The position numbers and the translations under genes were made by a program. A stretch of DNA of 62,085 nt, counting the filler, from Globobulimina sp. (lineage: Eukaryota), in NCBI GenBank assembly GCA_003354225.1. It is 31 parts of 31 records of this genome, joined end to end, with 100 filler letters (N's around TTAATTAATTAA, not from the genome) between each part and the next. Parts side by side here need not be neighbours in the genome. Positions count along the whole stretch, not along the records: positions 16,057 to 17,963 come from PIVH01010706.1; 30 more parts are not named here. One strand, written 5' to 3'. Below, in pieces: positions 15,907 to 61,783 of this stretch. The notes below the pieces were generated by a model, which was not told where the DNA came from, made no database searches, and saw only the letters and a list, made by a program, of their open reading frames with translations. Position 1 is the stretch's first letter. Every line of letters begins with the position of its first letter.

Positions 15907-16153
15907 ATTAATACCCTGCAGACACTTGCACTGTCCAAATTTATTGTGGTTATCTCNNNNNNNNNNNNNNNNNNNNNNNNNNNNNNNNNNNNNNNNNNNN
16001 TTAATTAATTAANNNNNNNNNNNNNNNNNNNNNNNNNNNNNNNNNNNNNNNNNNNNTGGTTGTTATCTTTCTTCGCAAAACAATTAATTTTTTTTTTAAT
16101 AATAATTAGTATTTAAGAATCTTAACATTCCACCAACAAAGAACTTTTATGTA

Positions 16154-16510
16154 ATGGCACGCACAAAGCAAACTGCTAGGAGGTCAGCTTTCAATTCGAA
16201 TATTAAAAAAGTTGGCTGGACGTGGGCTAGAAGGTCAGTGTCTCCGTCTCATCTTCGTCGTGCTCCTAAGGTACATATTATTGACTCAGCAGACTGGATG
16301 AAGATAATGGTGAAAAAGAAAAAGGTACGGACGACGAACAAGGTAATGAAAAAGAAAAAAGTACAATATGGTATTTTAAAAGGTTATGTAAAACATGGAG
16401 GTGTTATACCTTATTATAAATGGGAAAACGGAATCAATCCGTTATTTCAAAAAAATGATGGCCAAACATATGTTCGATCGTTGATTTTTAGTATTTATGT
16501 TTTCAGATAA
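16154..16510 (+). CDS. Small basic protein starting with a histone H3 N-terminal tail mimic; no histone fold
   Basis: MARTKQTARRS... and a second ARRS at residues 24-27; Lys-rich body; no YRPG/LREIR H3 core. Confidence 0.55.
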   Translation: MARTKQTARRSAFNSNIKKVGWTWARRSVSPSHLRRAPKVHIIDSADWMKIMVKKKKVRTTNKVMKKKKVQYGILKGYVKHGGVIPYYKWENGINPLFQKNDGQTYVRSLIFSIYVFR

Positions 16511-17835
16511 AAATTGTACACAATTACATTCAACCCTTTACCTTATTCTTGTCTGTGATTCTGTTCTTTGCCTAACTCTGGATCTAGACCAATGTGTTTG
16601 TCTTTGATAATTTATCCTATGTGAAATATTTGATAATGGTAGTTCAATGTTGGATAGGAATGCTCATAATATTGATAATAATGAACATAAAATAGATGTG
16701 GAAGATATAGAGAATATTCCACCACGTTCATTGCATGCAATAAGTCAACACCCTTCATCACTGCTACTACCACCTCCATCAATACCGATATTTTTTGAAT
16801 TAAAGCTTTATCAATTTTTCCTTCAGTAACATCATAAATGAATGATTGATTTAATATTTGTTTATTCGAACTCATTGATATTAATGTACTTAATTAACAG
16901 TGTTTGTTTTTGTTTTTGAGCTATTTTATATCTATATTGACGCGTCAATAATTATAAAATCCAGTGTGCATTATTTATGGCATTTATTGATCTTTACAAT
17001 ATTTTGTGCAATATGTATTCAATAAAATAAGTATATCTGATTCAATCAAATTGTCAAATATATTTAATTGAGCTGCGCCTAAATTTACATATTTGTATTC
17101 ATGATGAACACTTTGATTTATCATATTTCCATTCATGCAATGATTTTGTATACGGATAAACGAAAACGAATCTGTTTTTGCTTCATTCATGGTTCTGAAA
17201 TGTTTTCAGGATTCGAGCACAAATGTTATTTATGTTTTTCTATCGTTAGCATTTACAAGCATTGGTAATATTAACTGTCTTTATTATCTTGAATTATTAT
17301 CAAAAGCACTCGCTGTATATTCAAAGCCTTTCACATCAACTTATCACTGCAAAATCAGAATATTTCTGTTCAATCTGTCGAAATGTACGTTTTTATCTGA
17401 AACACTCCATGTAAGCAAATGTCAGAGATGGAATCAATGGTCATTGGTGTTGCTTATGTGCTCTGTGAAGATTGTAGGGTACAGGTGATGACATGATATG
17501 ATATGATTAACGACTAAATAGTTGTCTTTAGATAGCAAAATTTTTCAGTATTTATATGTTAAGATTTTTTGTGCAAAGTTTAAAGTTGTTTTTTGAAGTA
17601 AATAATGCAACTGAATCTAACAAAGACAATATTTATGTATTGACAATCTGTTGTAGTATTGACCAATGACAATCATCAGTTTTTCGAAGTTTGTGTGAAT
17701 AACAACATCGCAATTTATTGAGTTGAGAAATCATCTTCAACAAAACAACATTAATTCTCAATCTTATTCATTCTCATTCTCAATCATATATTCTGACATT
17801 AATTAAAAAGCAAACTTAGTTAAATTTAATATCAT

Positions 17836-17963
17836 ATGTCTGGCAAAGGAAAGCGAGGCAGAGGCAAAGGAAAAGGAAAAGGAAAACAAGTGTCCCGTTC
17901 AGCCAGAGCAGGTTTACAATTCCCAGTTGGTCGCTTAGCCCGTTATTTGCGGAAAGGAGGTTA
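17836..17963 (+). CDS. H2A: Histone H2A, 5' portion (truncated by contig end; absent from the ORF track)
   Basis: Manual translation gives [42 protein letters not shown], containing the H2A signature [14 protein letters not shown]. Confidence 0.95.
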
Positions 17964-20154: not shown

Positions 20155-21372
20155 TTACTTTGCTGCATTCACCGCAGCTGCTTCGAGTGCTATTTTATTT
20201 TCCAAGAAAGCCGTATCCTCTCCATGTCCCTCAATGTCCTCTGGGTTCTCATGAAAAAACCCCTGTATTAAACTGCCATGAATCTTAGCAATATTCTCCT
20301 TCGAATCATCAAAGGGTATATACGCCTTTATTTTTACTTTATTTTTTTTGTTCACACCCACGCACAGTTCGTTATTGTCCTCCTCCATATCCATATCCTC
20401 AACATCGGCGTCAGAGCCTTTCAACAACTCATTGTCGTCGGCCTCAGCCTCGCTGTCGTCTGACGAAGTTTGTTCCGCCGCAGAAATGGGCACTAACAGC
20501 CCATGTCCATTGTGCTTGATTTCTTCGTCATAATTGTCATCCGAAGGCACCACAATCAACGATCGCTCAAATTTCTTCTTGGATTTGTCGTTTTTTATGA
20601 GTGGCGCCTCTTCGTTTGGGCCCTCGCTGATACTCTCATCAATGGCCCATTGCGGAATGGGGAGCTTCAACTTCCTCGTTTTTTTGTCATTATTGGCGGG
20701 GTTATTCACATCGATGTCGATGTCAATCACTTCATCCGTGGTTTTCAACATTTCGAAGTACGGATTGGGCGTCAAAATCACCGCGCCGGTGCCCGCCCGC
20801 CCTGTGTAAGGATATATGATATCAAACAATAAGTGCTGGAAAGAGGCGGTCCAAGTCACAATCTTCTCCTTTTCCAAGATTTTCACACACGAACGCACAA
20901 ATTCTTTGTTTAGCGTTTTTAAGCGCCGATCGGTATAAATCACAATGATTAAGGTGATCATAGTCAATATTAAGAGCATGCCACCAAAAATGATCATGAT
21001 TCTGCCTTTGGGCAACTCATTTTGGACCAGCCCGATGTTGGTCAATACCACACCGATGAAGAAGGTCAAAATAGCGAATAGAATGCGGGAATAATAGTTT
21101 TTACGTAAAGTGGAATATTCTTCAGATATGGTCTCGGCGGAAATGGTCAAAACTTTGCGAATATCGCCTACGATTTTGGAGCGTGTGTTTAGTTCTAAGA
21201 AAGAATCGTCGTATTTGGTATCCGTGGCGCGGTCCACTTTGACTTTGGCGATGGACCGAAATTTAAAGATTTTATAATCGACTTGGAAGCCATTGTTACG
21301 AACGCGAAATGGTATGATGGCTTTGCGGGTGATGTCGCAGGATTCCTCGTCGTCCGATAGGCTGTTTCCCAT
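20155..21372 (-). CDS. Two-TM membrane protein with possible N-myristoylation and acidic C-terminus
   Basis: MGNSLS start; two hydrophobic helices; intact 405-aa ORF. Confidence 0.7.
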   Translation of the reverse strand: MGNSLSDDEESCDITRKAIIPFRVRNNGFQVDYKIFKFRSIAKVKVDRATDTKYDDSFLELNTRSKIVGDIRKVLTISAETISEEYSTLRKNYYSRILFAILTFFIGVVLTNIGLVQNELPKGRIMIIFGGMLLILTMITLIIVIYTDRRLKTLNKEFVRSCVKILEKEKIVTWTASFQHLLFDIIYPYTGRAGTGAVILTPNPYFEMLKTTDEVIDIDIDVNNPANNDKKTRKLKLPIPQWAIDESISEGPNEEAPLIKNDKSKKKFERSLIVVPSDDNYDEEIKHNGHGLLVPISAAEQTSSDDSEAEADDNELLKGSDADVEDMDMEEDNNELCVGVNKKNKVKIKAYIPFDDSKENIAKIHGSLIQGFFHENPEDIEGHGEDTAFLENKIALEAAAVNAAK

Positions 21373-21632
21373 ACTTTGTGCTGCCTATATGTATACACTA
21401 TGCATATATGTTTTTTGTGTGGAGGCATGGCTGTATGTATATGGCACAAAATAGTTTTGATGTGCGAGGATAAATTACTTTTCGTAGCATATATACAATG
21501 TTTAGTTTGATGATAAAATGTTGTTTCGCAAACCTAGATATGGAGCCAAATGTATATTTCTATGTATTCTCTACTTCTTTTCTTCTTTGAACGGATGCTA
21601 TGGAACTTGGCTTAGATTGAAGTCACACTAAA

Positions 21633-22732: not shown

Positions 22733-23914
22733 TCATTTGGTGAAACTGTCAAGCTCTTCTTGTTGATAAAGTTTAACATTGCTTTCTTGTGGTGCCATAC
22801 TTGTAAGTTTCATTGTTGATTCCATCTTCATTTTATCTTTATTCTTTCTGAAATACCAAACCATGACAATTATTAAACATGCAATAACACAGAATACAAC
22901 AACAATAATAATATGATTTTCAATATGTGATTTGTTTGATGTATAGTCGTTATAATTATCAATAACGCAATGTGGTTCATATATTTCTTGCGAATGAACC
23001 TTCCCCTTCATATATTTCAATTGAGTTACATCAAAACCGAAAGAATTGAGAATAAAAGCAGCAATGTCAATATTTTGCACAAACAAATCAGTAATATCAA
23101 GCTTTTTATTAATGCAATAGCCATAAAATATAATGGGGATAAATATATTTGCGCCATCAAAGGGTCCGTGCATACTGCCATAACCACCATGATCTGCAGT
23201 AATAATAATTTGTGTTTTATCCAAAATGTCATTGTCAGCTAATGAGTTTATTAATTTCCCGATTAATGCATCAATACGTTCGGCTGTGCGGTAATATTCT
23301 TGTGATCCCCAGTACGAATCATGTCCGTTTTCGTCGAGAGAACCAAAATAACTGAACATAACATTTGGTTTATACTCATTTATAAACTCAATTAATTTGT
23401 CGACATTTGCAGTATCGTTAAATGCATCGCTTTGATAATATATATGGTCGATATTTGGATTATTTTTAAATAAATTATCAAACCACAGCCAATTATAAGT
23501 GACTGCAGTGGTTATTGATGAGTTATATGCTTTCAATATATCAAATATTGTTGGCAAGTGAGGCAATGTATACTTTGATGAATAATTATATGACACTGGG
23601 GGCACTCCAACGGATGATAAGTTTGTTGGTTTAATATGTTTAGTATAATTCCATTCATTGCTAAATATTCCACTTTCTATTGGTCTTAATCCTGTTAATA
23701 TTGCACCCCAATTAGGTGCAGATATCATTGGCTGCACAGTTCTTGCGTGAAATGTATACGATGCATTTGCAATTATTTCATTTATTGTTGGTAAGAAACT
23801 TGTTGAGTTGATAAGATATTCTCCGCCAAATCCATCAATACCAATCAGTAACACATGCTCTGGTTGGCTGACAGACAAACTGCAAGAGAATAAGAATGGA
23901 AGTAGAGTTATCAT
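22733..23914 (-). CDS. Alkaline-phosphatase-superfamily (nucleotide pyrophosphatase/phosphodiesterase-like) type I membrane protein
   Basis: Signal peptide; LIGIDG, ISAPNW, LDENGH, TADHGG and HG metal-binding motifs; C-terminal TM helix. Confidence 0.85.
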   Translation of the reverse strand: MITLLPFLFSCSLSVSQPEHVLLIGIDGFGGEYLINSTSFLPTINEIIANASYTFHARTVQPMISAPNWGAILTGLRPIESGIFSNEWNYTKHIKPTNLSSVGVPPVSYNYSSKYTLPHLPTIFDILKAYNSSITTAVTYNWLWFDNLFKNNPNIDHIYYQSDAFNDTANVDKLIEFINEYKPNVMFSYFGSLDENGHDSYWGSQEYYRTAERIDALIGKLINSLADNDILDKTQIIITADHGGYGSMHGPFDGANIFIPIIFYGYCINKKLDITDLFVQNIDIAAFILNSFGFDVTQLKYMKGKVHSQEIYEPHCVIDNYNDYTSNKSHIENHIIIVVVFCVIACLIIVMVWYFRKNKDKMKMESTMKLTSMAPQESNVKLYQQEELDSFTK

Positions 23915-24864
23915 TATAGTCTAATATAGTCACGAAAATGTTAGGGTACTTACAATATTTAATATATACAAGTTGAAGGGTTNNNNNNNNNNNNNNNNNN
24001 NNNNNNNNNNNNNNNNNNNNNNNNNNTTAATTAATTAANNNNNNNNNNNNNNNNNNNNNNNNNNNNNNNNNNNNNNNNNNNNTTTGTAAGTTCTCTGATC
24101 TTTTTTTTCATATTTGTCAAAATAATTGTCTTTGTCGAAAAGAAATTAGCTTTTTTTCTATGTATTTTTATTATTTTAATCGATCATAATTATTTTGCAT
24201 TTTTTTATCTCCTGTTTTATGTTTTGTTCTGTTTTTATAATAATGATATATATAATAATAATAATAATTAATTATAAATGATATAAGTTTCTTTCAATTT
24301 ATCCAACGCCATCAGTTTCACCTTACTTATTATATTGTTTTTTTTTTATTTTATACAACCAACTCATATATCTTATTATTGTTTGTTTTGGTTTTCCTCA
24401 ACTTTTGTTTTTTGTTTATTTTGTCTTGGCTTCGATATTTGCTTTTTACAATCAACCAAAAAAAACATTATTGAAATGTAACAAAACCTAAACGTGTTAT
24501 TAATTAAATCAAAAAATAAGTGTTATATATATTAAAATTCGAAAAAAAACGACAATGAAAGAGGTTTGTAGGTTTGACCAATATTTTCACTACAGATCAG
24601 CATTCAGCAGTAATGAAAGAAACATAATCATTGATTCCATTCTTCTGCTAGAATGAACTTGTTTTGCTGGATTGTCAAATCTCGAAACATAAATTAAAAA
24701 ACCTGAAACCTCAGCGATCAATGTTTCCCATGATACTGATAGATATCATGATTTCTTAGTGTTTTGAAGAAAGTCTGTGCATATTAATTATATTTTTCAT
24801 TTTCGAACAATGAAAGCAACAAAAAGAATTCAAGAATATGAGGAAGAAAGAATTATAGTTACAA

Positions 24865-31739: not shown

Positions 31740-32106
31740 GTTGATTTTGATGTCGATTTTGCTGATGGATGTTGATTTTTATGATTTGAGTCGAAAATTA
31801 TGTGATTTAATTATGATTGTTCCGGTGCGAATATCCGTTGTTATTCTTGCAGCTGACATTACTAAATTGGATGACTTCGTGAAAATCTTTCCTAGATGAC
31901 AATTTTCGACAAACGACAAATTTAATTTCCTAGATTTTCTACAAACGAGTCTTCAGTTTAAATGATTTTTACGTGACAGCACGTGTCATAAAGCGAATTC
32001 GAAATANNNNNNNNNNNNNNNNNNNNNNNNNNNNNNNNNNNNNNNNNNNNTTAATTAATTAANNNNNNNNNNNNNNNNNNNNNNNNNNNNNNNNNNNNNN
32101 NNNNNN

Positions 32107-34012
32107 GTCGACTTTTTCTGCGTTATAATGTCATCAATGTCTGTTTCCCCAATCTGGACATGCTGCCACTTAATCGGGTTAGACCTCGGTGTACCATTAC
32201 AGTGTCTAATCATGTCATTATATAATGACCTCAGCTTCGGCGACAATGGATGCTTCTCAGCATACCATATTTCTGCGGCATACAACACCTTTGGAAACAC
32301 AAAGGCTTTGTATATGTTAATCAAATATCTCGCGAGCATTTCTGAGGCATATTTGTATCGATTGTATACATTGACATATGCCCTCCTTGCATTGCTTATG
32401 ATTTTTGCATACTGATAATCCCAACTTAGGTTCCAATCGATCCATATTCCGAGATATTTGACCGGAGTATGCTTCCTCGTTATCTCCTTACCATCCATTA
32501 TCATATCAAAATATAACTGTTTATGATATTTCTTATCCAAACTCTCATCAATAACCATATAATTTTGTTTCTTTGGCTGCAAAAACAAGCGCTTTCGTTT
32601 TGCAATGTAGCTAATCAGATTGATGGCATATTGCATATTCTTCTTAAGGTCCGCACCAGAAACGCTTCCATCGGATACCAAATTATTGTCATCCGCATAG
32701 CCAATCAATACGAGCCCTAAATCCATCTCATTTATCACATCAAACTCAATCGTGAAGAAGATGAAAATAATAGGCGATGGGGGCCATCCTTGTGGCACAC
32801 CACATATATCCTGACGCCATTCGCTGTAAAATCCATATATCTTAACACGACCCCATCGATACTCCAACGCAACGTACAAATACCTCAGTGCGAATCCAGT
32901 AATTCCAATGTCCAATTCTACACATTCCAGAATCATTTTGTGTTGCAACGTATCGAACGCTGCTTTGAAATCGATCAAAATCAAATGTGTTTCTTTCCGT
33001 ATAATACGATTATTCCATACCAATTCTATCAAATAAGCAATGGTGTCGACACAACCAATGCCTTTCATAAATCCAAAGTGTCTCCATCTAATAATCTTCA
33101 TTTTTATTCCATACGTTAAGTAGCGACCAGCCATCCATTTATCGAATGGATTGCTGCAGCTCGACAGCAACGACACCGGTCGATAACTATCCATATATTT
33201 CGCCTCCTTTCCTGCTTTCAAAATCACCGAAATCTCCCTGATATTCATGGATTTCACCCGAAGTCCCATAATAAACAATATATTATAGCATCGACATAAT
33301 CCTTCATCCAAAATATCGATTCCTTTCTGCAACAACGTATAGTTTGACTTATCGCTGTTACTCGCCTTCTTTCTACTGAATGACATCACTAAATTGCGGA
33401 GCTCGTCCAATTTCATGATCGAATTCATTTTTTTTGTCTCCTCCATATGCAATTTTGTGCCAAATTTGACTCTGTTCGTTTTACGATAATTATCAATGAT
33501 TTTATCGAATTTTTTGTTCTCAACATCCTCCACTTCCTCCTCCATTTCATCATCATCGAATCTATGAATATAATTGAGATAATTGTTGGCTTTGTCAATT
33601 GACTTAATTGCATCCACCGTACCATCGCTTTTATACCATACTGGGATCATATCCGATGTCGCCTTATCCTGTTTAATGATTTTATTTATCTTCTTCCATG
33701 GCATGCGCCCATCCGTTGCCATTGAACGAATCTCATCCTTCAACCACGTAATTCTGCCATTTTCGCATAACTCGTTTCTGTTTGCTTTCTTTGCCTCCAA
33801 TACTACCTTACATTTCTTCTTCTTCTTTTTCGAGAACGTCTTGAAACGTTTCTTATAACACTTAAAATCCGATATCGCTCTCCGTATTTTATGCGTCATC
33901 CACGGCATTGTCTTCTCGCTCGATTTCTTCCTTAATCCTAAGACGTCCATCGAAGTGTCAATAATGACATTCTTAAAGTACGTTTCCACCGCTTCTATAA
34001 TGTCATCTTCAA
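32107..34012 (-). mobile_element. Non-LTR (LINE) reverse transcriptase ORF2, partial and uninterrupted
   Basis: PWMT..I, YRPVSLLS, HFGF..G, LIDFKAAFDT, GVPQG..PSP, YADD, KYLGIWID..LSW. Confidence 0.95.
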
Positions 34013-38883: not shown

Positions 38884-40030
38884 TTAAACAAACACCTTAA
38901 AAAAGGTGACAACGCTGGAAAACAAAAACACAGCAATTGCCTTTGCAAGAACAGAATTTAATTTTATTTTGAACAAACGCGGATAAATATCTTTTTTATT
39001 AACAATAAAGATCATATCATCTAAAAATCCAAAATTATACGTATACCAATTTGTAGTATCTATTCTCCCCAAAACATCATTCTTTTTATCCATTCCAATC
39101 ACTGCTTCATTTTTCTTAATCAATGGAATTGCTTCATTTTCTTCATAACCATCATTATCAGGTTCAACATCCACCTCTTCCTCTTCCTTCTCCTCCTCTT
39201 GAATCTCAATCGTCTCATCCTTTTGTTCCCTGCCATGGCTTCTTTCCACTTTCGACAATGATGTCTGTGGATACATGGCATGAATACCAAACGCTGCTTC
39301 TTTAACATTGCTAGTTTCGAGCCCAATATTCTCCGCAACATTGCATCTCATCCACAACTTTTGTTCGCCCAATAACCTCTCTTGTGTCTCTTGCAAACTT
39401 TGAAACTGATAGCCAGTGATTGCGATGCGGATCAACGACAACAAGCAAATCACCATCAACACCACACAGCCATTGAATAGTATCGATTGTATCGCATTGC
39501 CCGCAATAAAATAGACTCGATATAAAATAAAAACTGATAACAACAACGTGGCAATAATCAAAAACAACGTCGGTAACTCCTGCTCACCAAACAATAATTT
39601 CCCCTCAATGGCTAAAAATGAGCGTATTTCCAACCAGCCCAAGGCGTTGGATCTGCGCGTCAACGACAAAAATAAATGTTTACTGAAATCTCGACCAAAT
39701 TTATGCGGGGTCAAATTGTGCGCTTTTTCCATTGCTATCATCTCCATCATTTCTTGTGTGTTTTTCCGCATCGTTTGTTTACGTCTCCCCGCCGCATCAT
39801 ATGCATCCAATTGTTGTTTGGCTAAAAGTAGCGTTAAGTCGCTCATCCACTCCCTATAATTGTCGAAGTGTTTGCTGTATTGCACCTCGATCGCAAATAT
39901 GAAGATTCCAACCAATAAGAAATTAACCAAGAATGCGCCCACTTGAATAACCCAATTCTCCTCGGTCCAAAACAACTGGCGAAAGGTGCTGCACCGACTA
40001 ATATGGTACCGCTGCCTTTTTCGATCGGCT
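38884..40030 (-). CDS. Multi-TM membrane protein, same family as 56173-56835 (5' partial)
   Basis: Several TM helices; shared W..xR..L...G motif and terminal (K/R)L(F/I)xIK(L/V)(N/D) before the last helix. Confidence 0.65.
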
Positions 40031-44142: not shown

Positions 44143-46047
44143 GCAACAATAATAATAATAATAAATACAATGATAGCCCTCTTATTTGCAAACTAAATCA
44201 AAGTCAATCTACCACGCAAACAGAAGAAGAATTTGAATCACAATCAGAAATAGAATATTTAAGTGATGAAGATTCAAACGATGATGATGATGAGTACAAC
44301 GACAATGAACCTGTTGATATAAACAATAACTTTTCATTCAAAACGCCATCAAAAACACATGATAATAACGAGAACAGTGGCTATATTGGCAAATATAATA
44401 TCCCTTTTCCATCGCAAGTATCTCGTTTTATTTTGTGGCATTTATTAAACGCATTAATAATACAAAAACAGGACGTTTGTGATAAAAGTAAGCAGACTTT
44501 TCATATTAATAAACAACGCAGCTTAGAAATTAAAACCGAAGAAGATGAATATTATGATGGGAGTCACGATGATGATGAAAAATTAATGATTCATTCCAAA
44601 ATAATCTCAGTACAATCCAATACTGATAATAATAAGATTGATTATGATGATTTAAATATAATTCCTGGAACAATTGAACCACATAAAACAAAAAAATCTT
44701 GTTTAATTATTGCTGATTGGAGTGAATATGTTGATACTTTTGAGAGTGCGTATTGCGATTTATTTGGTTTAAATGCATATATTATTTGGGTGTTTATGGC
44801 TAAACTATGCATTGATATTAGTTTACAGCATATTGATTTTGACTGTGATGGTATATCCATGCTAGAGAGCTTAATGACTGTTCCATCGCAAACCAGTGAA
44901 ACCACACCGGTACCGATTCATGATACATACGTGTTTAATGTAAAAAGAACATCCATTTCTGAAGCATCAGTCATTACAAACAGCACTACCAATGATTATG
45001 ATGAAAATGTTGGTGATGATGCTCTTAATATGAGCCATCAAATAAGTTTAAAACCAAAAAGATCCACAAAATATCATATAAATAAAAAATGGGGAAAGTT
45101 AAAAAAAAAAATTTCATCATTAACCGATGAAAATAATTCAACTGTTAATGATGGCGAAAAAATAAACAAATTTAAAGTAAAAAAATTCGCCCGCCGCTTT
45201 TCTATGACAAAGTTAGACAAAAATAAACAAACACATTCAAACGGAGATACTCGGCCATATATTGACAAAAAGCTAGAAATATCAAATGGAAATACTGAAT
45301 CAATGAAAAATATATTCATAAAAACATGGTTGTCAATATATGACTCATTAAAAGAGAATAATTATCCAAATATCAGTGATTTAAAGGATTTGGATTCCGT
45401 AATAAGTGACAGAATCATAAGATGGATATTAAGTAATTTGCAAAATTGGTTATTTAGTTATCAATCATATCCGATCTCAATATCCAAAGATTATTTCCAT
45501 TTATTTATTTCTGCGCAGTCTATCATTAATTCCTCAATTATTGACTGTGTCCATTGCATTGAAAATATTTTTATTAATGCCGCACATATTAAATATGATG
45601 CTATCTACGACTCAATCATTGATATTAAATATAAATCGAAAAGTAATAATAATAAACTTGAGAATGATAATATTTTAAATGTAAATGAATGGGAAATGTT
45701 TGTGGATGCATTAATAAATTGGATGGATATCGAAAGTAATAATAATGAGTCAGTATTTGAGCAATACCACATTCATCCCAGAATTGGACAATTTATACTA
45801 TTTACATTGTGTTCTCGATTCACAAACGATTTCAAACATTATATATTTCATACGGATCCGTTCAAATTAGCATTGCGAAGACAGTCTGTATACACCGGCA
45901 ACGAAGAGACATTTATTTGCGGTGACGATAAATCAATGGAACAATATCAATTCATCACTAATTTTATAGACGCGAAACTAATTAAATTATGTGGTATGGC
46001 TCGCAAGTTTGAAAATAATATGATATTAAATAAGAATTTATTATTTC
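44143..46047 (+). CDS. Large hypothetical protein (internal fragment)
   Basis: Long open frame (>550 aa); no recognised motif. Confidence 0.55.
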
Positions 46048-58177: not shown

Positions 58178-59759
58178 TAATAACAACGATGCTAATGATG
58201 AATCTGCAGCTGTCTTTAAAATAAGGCCATCCTTTAAGACTCAAACAAATACGAATAATATTAATGACGCACAACTGCTGCAATTACAAGAAAACAACAC
58301 AACAACAACAACAACAACAACAGGGAATGATGAGTATGCTGCCATTGACAATGTAAGAATCAATAAATATGCAAAGAATGCGCAAGATGTAAATAACATA
58401 AATAACTTAAAGAATGAGATGAATAGAAATAAGAGACACAAAACTGCTCAAACTATCGCTTTAAAATCAAATGAGAATAATAGCAATAATAAAGAGAAGG
58501 CATTTCAGCAATCAACGAGACGTCGATATTCTGCTGAATTGGAATTCCATGCATCCTCGAGACATATAAATAGAAAACGACACAATTCGAGATCGTCGCT
58601 AACATCACGTTTTCAACACTCTGCACATCAGACTCAGGACGATATGATATTTTTATCTTACGAGCAGTACCTACAAGAAACAAACAATAATCTGGAGCCT
58701 ACTCTTGATGATGACGATGAACCCAATGAGGAAAGCGAGGAGGAAGAGGAAGAGGAAGATAAAGAGGAAAAAAGTCAAAGTGAAAGGGAAAGGGATATTG
58801 TTGCAGATTTATTGAAGTTTAATAGTAATCGGTCGCCGCGGCGACTTCGATCCAAGGAAGAGTTCACCCAAATAAGTACACGGCGCGTAGTTAAATTACA
58901 TGCCCCGCCAGAAATAAAATATTCCGAAATAGATTTTGAAAATGAAGAGTTTATTGGTAAAGGCTCCTTTGGTCAGGTTGTAAAAGCCAAATATCATGAA
59001 ATTGATGTGGCAGTCAAGAAATTGCACCGACAAAAACTAGCAGGCTCAGAATTATTAAATTTTAAGCGCGAAGCGGCTATAATGCAGAAAGTAGGGGGAC
59101 ATAAACACATCGCCAGGATGTATGGATTTTGCACAAAGCCCGAGATTTTAATGATAACCGAATATTATGCACGAGGTTCATTGCATGACATCATTAAAAA
59201 ACAGAAAAAGAATGTAAATTATAAACGACTGACCACAGAGTTAAAAATTCAAATGTGTATCGAAGCATCGTTGGGTATATGGCATTTGCACCAACAACAA
59301 GTGATCCATCGGGACATCAGCGCCCGTAATTTGTTGGTAGATTCGAATTGGACGGTAGTTGTGGCAGATTTGGGAATGAGTCGATTAAAATCAAATATTA
59401 TCATAAAATCCAATGTTGGGCCAGTCAAATGGATGGCGCCTGAATCAATTATTGGGCACCAATACTCTGAAAAATCTGATTCATATTCATTTGGTATCAC
59501 TCTCTATGAAATATTCTCTGAATCTGAGCCATATCCCGGATTGTTACCGCTGGAAGCCGGCGCCAAAGTGGTTCACGAAGGATTAAGACCGGCAATCGAT
59601 AAACATAAAACAATTCAAAATGTGCCAAATCTATGCAAATTACTAACAATGCTCTGGAAACCGCAACCCAAAGACCGGCCCGACTTCTTGTTTATTACCC
59701 AATCTCTCAAAAAGATCAAACAGCAATGGCTCATTAAAAAATCAAAATATAAATGTTAA
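58178..59759 (+). CDS. Tyrosine-kinase-like (TKL) protein kinase, 5' partial
   Basis: IGKGSFGQV, VAVKKL, HRDISARN, DLG, GPVKWMAPE, SDSYSFG, DRP. Confidence 0.92.
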
Positions 59760-60181: not shown

Positions 60182-61783
60182 TATCCTGAAACGGCTTACA
60201 TTCATCCACATTGTCCGGATGTGTCCACCACGAATACTTGGCATCTGAATTCTGCGTAATGCCGTAAGCAAACTTGATCTGTCCCGTATCCTCCTCAATG
60301 TAGGAGACCCTCGCTTTGATCCACGACATGTAATGGAACCTATGACACGACGGCAATCGAATCAGTACTTTGTCCGCAATCTTGAGCTCTTGCAACTGTC
60401 TGCGCTGTACCTGCCGCCTCGTAATCCGCCCGTACTTAGCCAGCTTCTCATAGTCTTCGCTGATATGTATCCAACAGTCATACTGCGAATTCCACCCAAC
60501 ATAATGCAGCTTAATGAACATAAATTGTTTCTGTGTAATGGAGGCTTTGCACCATCGACCTTTGTAGTCTCTGTGGTCGATCTTATCGCCGACGCACAAT
60601 GAACGCAAATCGATGTCGGATAACAACATCTCATTCATTCGAAAGCCATCGTTTTCGTCATTGTCCTGCTGGCAAATATCATTATGCTCGTTTTTTGAAT
60701 CTGGCTCATTTGCATTCGGCTTCGCATCGCTTTTCATTTTGTTGTGCAGTTTCTTGCGTAGTATGTTTATAATTTTGTCCTTTGAGATGAAGCGCATTCG
60801 ATTGATTTCGTCGCAGAGATAGTCCGTATTAAACTTATTGAAATCGAAATAATTTATTAATTTTGTCATGTATGCTTCCCACTGTGTACTGCGGGAATGT
60901 CTATGTTTGCTGTCATCGCAACCGATGGAATGCGAGGATATATTGTCAATAATTTGCGATTTGCTCCATCGAAGACAAGCTGTGAACATTCGTTCGTCGT
61001 TGATTTGACATTTCAGCATTTCTTCGAGCTGCCAGTATTTAAGATATTTTTCGAATAAATGGTCATTTAAAATTAAATATTTATCATAATAATAATTATC
61101 GTCGCTGTGGTTATTGCTGACGTGCTGGGACTGGCTCTGTGCGTTTGTGTTGTTGCAATTGTTGATTTGTTTGATTTTATTATCATTGTAATGTTGGTGT
61201 TGAATGCAATCGGCGATATTTAACGCTTTGCAGCATTGGATAAAGGTTTTGAAAAACGGATAAAATGTGGATTGAGGATATTTCGCAAATGATTTCATGA
61301 TTTTATACCAGTTTTTAGCCTTTTCTATGTTTAATAGATATTGGTGGCATTTGGTAATTAGTGTTTTAATGAAATATATCCGCGATGCATATAATACATC
61401 CACTACAATGTCACAGGTCTGTGTGTGTTATGTGTTGTGTTTAAAGGAAAAGATATAGAAATATAACGAACTAATTTAGGATTTTGAAAATAAAACATGG
61501 ATCGTATGAATTTAAATGCATTGGGGGTTATATCACCAATAATAACGGCTTTGTCTTTTGACACAGATTCTGAATAATTACCAAACAGCATATTGCGAAA
61601 TACTTCACTTTGAGCGGCAAATAATGCTCTTATTGCAGTGAATTGTTGGTCAGCAATGATGAATATAACATCTCCATAATCTTCATTCCCCATTATTTCA
61701 CTTAAATTCTCTCGTAATGAATCGTGCAGATTCAGACTTGGTTGGGTTAATGCAGACGGACTTAGTTTTTCTTCTGACGCCAT
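60182..61783 (-). CDS. BTB/POZ protein with BACK-like region and C-terminal Tudor/MBT-like domains; intron 61419-61471
   Basis: DVIFII....F.A.R..FAAQSEVFRNMLFG...E. Splicing gives PKL|TCDIVVDVLYA. C-terminus VGDKIDHRD..GRW..A.I.....LHYVGW...YD.WI. Confidence 0.85.

Follow-up and report, generated by a model that had tools for sequence, protein, structure and literature searches.

An open reading frame (ORF) of 118 codons at 16154-16510 (+ strand) in the Globobulimina sp. assembly encodes a small basic protein, P0001, that starts like histone H3 and continues into a body unlike any histone. Our preferred explanation, to which we give an even chance, is that the ORF belongs to an organism-specific, H3-derived chimeric gene family that would act, if at all, through mimicry of the H3 N-terminus. 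Close behind and nearly as likely is the view that it is a non-functional relic, which we hold to be a serious possibility. Judging from the sequences, a live family is favoured by long open frames in AT-rich DNA, by insertions and deletions (indels) that only ever preserve the frame and by a mosaic pattern of conservation; it is disfavoured by orphan status, the lack of a confident fold, unrelated 3′ ends and unconstrained residues 10-37.

The ORF and its contig

The window, i.e. the whole stretch of 62,085 bases that was analyzed, is a chain of 31 separate contigs of 1904-1907 bp each, arranged in descending order of length and joined by 30 identical artificial linkers (44 N, TTAATTAATTAA, 44 N). 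The contigs are independent of one another, and an apparent neighbourhood that spans a linker is therefore not genuine. The genuine genomic context of the ORF is its own contig at 16057-17963 only (1907 bp, 31% G+C), which has an artificial N/TTAATTAATTAA linker on both sides.

The ORF starts with the ATG at 16154 and ends with the TAA at 16508-16510. As the original prediction had it, the translation opens with MARTKQTARRS. The segment ARTKQTAR (16157-16180, + strand) is identical to H3 residues 1-8 by motif scan and by alignment; compared to the H3-tail pattern ARTKQTARKS...ARKS, residues 1-8 are exact, and K9 and K27 are replaced by Arg. The predicted second ARRS is present at residues 25-28 counting the Met (24-27 without it), one place off the ARKS of H3 (25-28), and the body is indeed Lys-rich (18 K and 10 R in 118 residues, net charge +24, pI 11.0).

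The reading frame of the ORF contains no stop, the other five frames contain 5-10 each, and only one in 5000 dinucleotide-preserving shuffles of the ORF stayed open. The ORF is open far beyond chance. When P0001's own residues were shuffled, an AR[KR]S motif started at about residues 19-31 in 89 of 200000 cases, and by our own arithmetic, with typical residue frequencies, an exact ARTKQTAR right behind the start Met has a chance of ~1e-10 per ORF. Given that the ORF is open beyond chance and that the placement of AR[KR]S is itself unlikely to be accidental, the first ~30 residues of P0001 have probably descended from an H3 tail. The codon-usage score of the ORF (+0.09 bit/codon in frame) compares with 0.08-0.26 for the training genes, which were ten long ORFs of the window, and with -0.09 to +0.16 for stop-free spacer ORFs of the same contig; this score does not discriminate coding from spacer sequence.

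The absence of a histone fold, also part of the original prediction, was borne out. A Pfam scan returned no family for the ORF and none in the six frames of the contig (X at stops, E≤10); it should be noted that the same scan missed the 42-residue H2A fragment described below, and that very short exons could escape it. A six-frame motif scan of the entire window, allowing up to 2 mismatches, found no H3-core motif; its only matches were the ARTKQTAR at 16157-16180 and an H2A motif, AGLQFPVGR, at 17908-17934. A phmmer search of the PDB with the whole ORF gave 0 matches. With the first 48 residues, the match to H3.3C (E 1.6, 12.5 bits) was not significant by HMMER and fell below chance matches to neurotrophin-3; the alignment with H3.3C (PDB 4z5t_A and 8rbx_M) is collinear and ungapped over residues 1-33. 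Likeness to H3 past the first 9 residues is not significant by HMMER (E 1.6), and we argue for descent from H3 on the basis of the exact nine-residue start in its proper place (twelve residues in the paralogue described below), the placement of the second AR[KR]S and the histone gene nearby. The option that this is a degenerate H3 is ruled out in its simple, decayed form: no remnant of the core is found on the contig, and the body is shared with a second copy and partly well conserved. In the same contig, Rfam at E≤10 gave no histone 3′ stem-loop, only sub-threshold snoRNA and miRNA noise.

The neighbouring gene starts 1326 bases past the ORF stop, with an ATG at 17836, and runs on the + strand to 17963, where it is cut by the contig end after 42 codons. 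The original prediction of an H2A start 1.3 kb downstream on the same contig was correct, with the caveat that only 16057-17963 is real context within the 31-contig chain. At E≤1, these 42 residues have matches to 207 distinct sequences in the PDB; the best 60 of the 207 are all H2A-family, the best being H2A.V/H2A.Z (E 3.6e-9), and on these matches we take the neighbour to be a real H2A. A 6-nt repeat (AGGAAA x4.2, 17862-17886) codes for a (GK)n run at its N-terminus. The highest word depth of the contig in the public sequencing run X1 occurs at this end (190-500), which is also the only part of the contig covered by runs X2 and X3, as expected of a multi-copy histone gene. The spacer between ORF and H2A (16511-17835) contains no recognisable gene. 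An X1 contig of low depth (791 bp) matches 16426-17216 exactly, with 0 other letters, leading from the end of the ORF into unique DNA. In addition, a 24-nt stretch at 16485-16508 has an 83% identical copy at 17542-17565, in a repeated region upstream of H2A; the pair could be the trace of a rearrangement, or chance in AT-rich DNA.

Other contigs of the window bear ordinary eukaryotic genes (reverse transcriptase, protein kinase and type I phosphodiesterase). The open frame of 635 codons at 32106-34010 (- strand) fills its entire contig and, from its RVT_1 domain (E 9.9e-19), is a retroelement fragment. Two more ORFs are uninterrupted: the one at 58179-59756 (+) has a protein kinase domain (E 2e-58), the other, at 22736-23920 (-), a type I phosphodiesterase/nucleotide pyrophosphatase domain (E 4.6e-29); long intron-free ORFs seem common in this assembly. 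Four further ORFs of 381-634 codons, at 44145-46046 (+), 60183-61427 (-), 20158-21384 (-) and 38887-40029 (-), have no Pfam family at E≤0.001. Orphan ORFs thus appear frequent in this genome.

A second copy of the same build

Searches of ~15 billion proteins yielded one relative, the paralogue P0003, an NCBI protein of 196 aa from a contig with a listed length of 3128 bp. It was found among 5.8 billion clustered proteins of 64-207 aa (E 7e-44, 95 of 141 aligned positions identical, or 67%), a search in which the window ORF was not itself listed as a database protein. Among shorter proteins (30-63 aa) there was no candidate, and none of the 74 candidates among longer proteins (208-2000 aa) reached E≤1. 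A two-sequence HMMER profile compared to 1.84 billion representatives recovered only P0003, itself a query row, and no new relative. Scans of 2.9 million viral contigs gave no relative, and scans of JGI metagenome contigs gave none that was confirmed. A protein atlas had no lead for the ORF (best score 0.80, low recognition of 1461). Since the searches of proteins, viral DNA and metagenome DNA found no further relative, the family of P0001 and P0003 would appear restricted to this organism's data. Many orphan ORFs of fragmentary assemblies are no genuine genes. The orphan status of the family in all three kinds of search, together with the low atlas recognition, is accordingly in keeping with a relic; it weighs less against the ORF given the apparent frequency of orphan ORFs in this genome.

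P0001 and P0003 have the same parts in the same order: an H3 head, a variable stretch, the sequence PKVHIIDSADW, Lys-rich repeats and a conserved block. The P0003 frame is open for 196 codons. It starts with MARTKQTARKST, of which 11 residues are identical to H3 (12 counting the Met), and keeps Lys 9 (ARKST). At the K9 place the codon is AGG in the window copy vs. AAG in P0003, a single G/A change, and the second ARRS of P0001 is ARMH in P0003. Each copy retains a different piece of the H3 tail, in line with a common ancestor whose tail was fuller and with no constraint on these sites afterwards; the loss of K9 in one copy and of the ARKS-like motif in the other also agrees with a relic.

The family was also examined in X1, a single public run covered as contigs; the longest of these is 98 kb, which suggests that X1 is DNA data. 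An X1 contig of 677 bp is a P0003-type copy and covers 16057-16296 and 16336-16455. The head-to-body junction is also found in P0003 and in the X1 contig, so that the build is not a one-off join. The X1 word depth of this paralogue-type contig was 85.6, vs. 6.83 and 6.17 for contigs matching the unique spacer; word depth is not copy number, as the tool itself warns, and the contig is scarcely represented in two sister runs of the sample, so that the values are only a hint. They would fit a multi-copy repeat of the kind that a relic supposes, as would the contig end, which lies inside repeated sequence.

The 5′ flank common to both copies (16057-16153, + strand) shows 4 substitutions in 97 nt, and is thus no less conserved than the coding part overall, a point for the relic; it runs to the contig end, and the repeat may extend further. 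The flank contains TATTTAAG ~40 nt upstream of the ATG (read by eye). A minimal upstream ORF (ATG-TAA, 16149-16154, + strand) has a stop that overlaps the A of the main ATG, as ATGTAATG, and bases 16149-16156 are unchanged in the paralogue contig. The H3 head itself (16154-16181, 28 nt, ATG included) has 0 differences between copies, the first coding difference being at 16182.

The remainder of the tail has changed fast. In codons 10-37 (16181-16264, + strand), we counted 12 substitutions compared to the paralogue, a 9-nt insertion and a -1/+1 pair. Both Arg-bearing sites of the window copy lie inside this segment (R10, AGG at 16181-16183; the second ARRS at 16226-16237). The codon changes that could be scored cleanly number 10 (R10K, A12T, F13S, G21D, W22R, T23M, W24S, R27M, H33R and A37G); every one of them is non-synonymous, against 0 synonymous changes, in a segment with 20.7 synonymous and 63.3 non-synonymous sites; one further change lies inside the -1/+1 patch and was left out of the codon scoring. 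The chance of seeing no synonymous change among 11 substitutions is ~0.05 by our own arithmetic. The uniformly non-synonymous character of the changes gives no sign of purifying selection on most of the 'tail', which also speaks for a relic.

Conservation returns beyond codon 37. The block PKVHIIDSADW (16265-16297, + strand) has no differences over 16264-16296. It is followed by Lys-rich tandem repeats of the VMKKKKVRTTNK type (16298-16366, + strand), whose 18-nt cores (16311-16328 and 16347-16364) recur at a distance of 36 nt. The number of repeats differs between copies, seen as a 36-nt skip and a 54-nt step back, accompanied by inserts of 12 and 11 letters, as aligned. The C-terminal block of 42 residues, YGILKGYVKHGGVIPYYKWENGINPLFQK(N/K)DGQTYVRSLIFS (16367-16492, + strand), has 1 synonymous and 1 non-synonymous difference; the codon differences downstream of the tail are Y72 (synonymous) and N101K (non-synonymous), and 16336-16494 (~160 nt) has 2 substitutions in all. 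This block matched no Pfam family and no PDB sequence. Every length difference between the copies preserves the frame (the +9 nt, the -1/+1 pair 5 nt apart, and the repeats of 36 and 54 nt), and P0001 and P0003 are in register through the C-terminal block. The homology ends at 16494/16495 (+ strand), exactly where the 24-nt stretch at 16485-16508 sits. The window copy stops 5 codons later, and the paralogue continues with MRHGMKKFNKV... for 56 more codons (hand translation, matching P0003).

Predicted structures were of low confidence for the most part. AlphaFold2, run with the two-sequence alignment, gave mean pLDDT values of 38.3 for P0001 and 53.3 for P0003. The H3-like tail was at ~39 and residues 1-45 of P0003 were below 50. 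For the Lys-rich repeats of P0003 the model has a single long helix over residues 48-107 (means of 74-88 for 10-residue blocks over 51-90); it also has a hydrophobic C-terminal helix, and the conserved block (residues 103-173) was below 50, with no confident fold.

We considered a chromodomain (PF00385) for GGVIPYYKWENG, on account of a likeness that we presume to the HP1-type chromodomain Y-Y-x-K-W-K-G, and rejected it: there was no Chromo match at E≤10 in the C-terminal 49 aa, in P0001 or in P0003, no PDB match, and no support in the AlphaFold models, where confidence in the GGVIPYYKWENG region is low.

Relic, artefact or decoy

The most serious alternative to a gene family is that the ORF is a rearranged fragment of a histone cluster, consisting of the 5′ end of an H3 gene plus other sequence, that has been duplicated as a dispersed repeat and is now decaying. 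The ORFs would be open merely because the copies are young and derived from once-coding sequence. In addition to the points made above, the lack of a confident fold speaks for such a relic, as do the 3′ ends, which are unrelated past 16494 and leave the window copy the shorter of the two (118 vs. 196 aa). It is less easily reconciled with long open frames in both copies at ~36% G+C, in a setting where the other frames have 5-10 stops per 118 codons, or with indels between the copies that are all frame-preserving, including a compensated -1/+1 pair. Nor does uniform decay predict that the head and the block be kept above the middle. Conservation is a mosaic, with 0 differences at 16154-16181, 12 substitutions and 3 indels at 16182-16263, and 2 differences at 16336-16494; the head (28 nt) and the C-terminal block (~160 nt) are far better kept than the 82 nt between them. 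It should be noted that, with so few substitutions, an ORF that has stayed open is no proof of selection; by our own estimate, about one new stop is expected at most.

A quite improbable explanation is that the ORF is an artefact, either of a contig mis-join or of reading as a whole gene what is only exon 1 of a normal H3/CENP-A gene, with the core in missed or off-contig exons. The contig is only 1907 bp long with repeated sequence at both ends, AG|GT-like sites lie behind both ARRS codons (GCTAGGAGGTCAGC and GCTAGAAGGTCAGT), and the Pfam scan, with the 42-aa H2A fragment undetected as a control, would miss very short exons. Yet no histone family was seen in the six contig frames at E≤10 and no H3-core motif in the window, the 1.3 kb downstream runs into the H2A gene on the same strand, and P0003 has the same non-histone body continuous with its H3 head. 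The exact X1 match over 16426-17216 crosses the ORF end, though X1 may be the source of the assembly and is thus not independent. The recurrence of the same build in two different contigs argues against a one-off mis-join or a hidden-exon artefact.

Least probable of all is the proposal, made in the original prediction, that the protein is a decoy selected to keep K4, S10 and S28 while being unmethylatable at the K9 and K27 equivalents, and so to escape repressive methylation. In its favour, ARRS does stand at both sites of the window copy, together with K4 and the two Ser residues. In P0003, however, the K9 equivalent is Lys and the second site is ARMH, with neither the Lys/Arg nor the Ser. 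The R10/K10 difference is a single G/A change, both sites lie within the segment of solely non-synonymous change, apparently unconstrained (codons 10-37), and no copy other than that of the window was seen to bear the R-form. With ARKST and ARMH in P0003, the Arg pair is peculiar to the window copy rather than conserved. The X1 bins over 16057-16376 had a depth of 66.9-85.6, with no excess over the 85.6 of the paralogue-type contig; X1 contigs can drop rare variants, and the depth shows that the other form is present, not that the R-form is absent. The best reading of the Arg residues would be drift in one diverged, 3′-shortened copy, not a design feature. What is invariant between the two copies, as far as their sequences tell, is H3 residues 1-8 only (R2, T3, K4, T6 and R8).

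A possible H3-derived family and its likeness to known mimics

For the chimeric gene family that we favour, the most economical origin would be a fusion, which we infer in preference to convergence. The start of an H3 gene (ATG and ~30 tail codons, probably with the 5′ flank) would have been joined to an unrelated coding sequence, the partner being the Lys-rich tandem repeat and the 42-residue conserved block. The fusion would have taken place in a histone gene neighbourhood, which fits with the H2A gene 1.3 kb downstream, and would have been followed by duplication. If the protein is translated, its start Met would be removed, the second residue being Ala, and ARTKQTAR, or H3 1-8, would be exposed on a disordered stretch joined to a strongly basic segment (net +24, pI 11). 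The basic segment may take the protein to the nucleus and to nucleic acid, where readers of the H3 N-terminus (of R2, T3 and K4) could bind or modify its free end. The protein might act by competition, or might provide DNA with an H3-like handle that needs no nucleosome; in either role it would resemble the H3 N-terminal mimicry proteins of animals.

To our knowledge, the proteins that imitate the H3 N-terminus carry short convergent motifs on animal regulators, or are viral. Our search of open-access papers and bioRxiv full text turned up work on animal H3 mimicry proteins, on PAF15 and on Sgo1, and no report of an H3-headed non-histone protein in a protist. The closest comparison is with the animal, non-histone proteins known as H3TMs, whose N-terminus after Met removal mimics the start of H3 (iM-Z-R-X-K) and which include VRK1, BCL11A/B, SALL1-4, FOG1/2 and PCLAF/PAF15, as described by Chen et al. 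(2021; PMC8166343). In that study, peptides of the seven H3TMs tested bound effector domains that read H3K4me3 (PHD and Tudor), several H3TM peptides bound NuRD in vitro, and Ala at the second place is given as permissive for Met removal (PMC8166343). The M-A-R-T-K at 16154-16168 conforms to the rule iM-Z-R-X-K, with a permissive Z, as the rule is worded there (PMC8166343). H3TMs share with H3 only the common 4-5-residue pattern, and bear it on folded, conserved proteins, whereas P0001 has 8 residues identical to H3 (11 in P0003) and a K27-like motif at the right distance. The length of this identity and the spacing of the motif favour an origin from an H3 gene over convergence. In contrast to the H3TMs, the body of P0001 is an orphan basic repeat without a fold.

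PAF15 is largely disordered. Like P0001 it is a small protein with an H3-like N-terminus, one that in its case is treated like an H3 tail, being dually mono-ubiquitylated according to Nishiyama et al. (2020; PMC7060239). It differs in being a vertebrate PCNA-binding factor of another sequence, unrelated to P0001. Canonical H3 (PF00125) shares with P0001 the first 9 residues including the Met, collinearity over residues 1-33 and a histone-gene neighbour, but there is no histone fold on the contig of the ORF, and the two sequences have nothing in common from about residue 30 onwards. Histone-tail mimics of viral origin, among them influenza NS1, resemble P0001 in placing a short copy of the H3 tail on a protein that is not part of the nucleosome; unlike them, the ORF lies on a contig with a typical cellular H2A start, among ordinary eukaryotic contigs, and has no relative in the 2.9 million viral contigs scanned.

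We also put forward a bolder version of the gene-family explanation, which we regard as unlikely. Beside its histone genes, this free-living eukaryote would have a 'tail-only' H3 family, in which the invariant residues 1-8 are borne by a long basic helix that replaces the nucleosome core. Such proteins would place an H3K4/R2/T3 handle on DNA or soak up readers and writers, with residues 10-37 free, or even driven, to diversify, and would be the cellular, H3-descended counterpart of the viral and animal mimics.

If the ORF is a relic, the lesson is that H3-like starts in fragmentary protist assemblies do not amount to mimicry without a second copy and expression data. If the family is real, it would represent a cellular protein descended from H3 itself that has shed the nucleosome core. 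The eight residues retained would be exactly those gripped by readers of the PHD, WD40 and BIR types. In that case the family would illustrate how signalling through histone tails can become independent of the nucleosome, and a protist lineage that has been little studied would offer a natural tail-only reagent.
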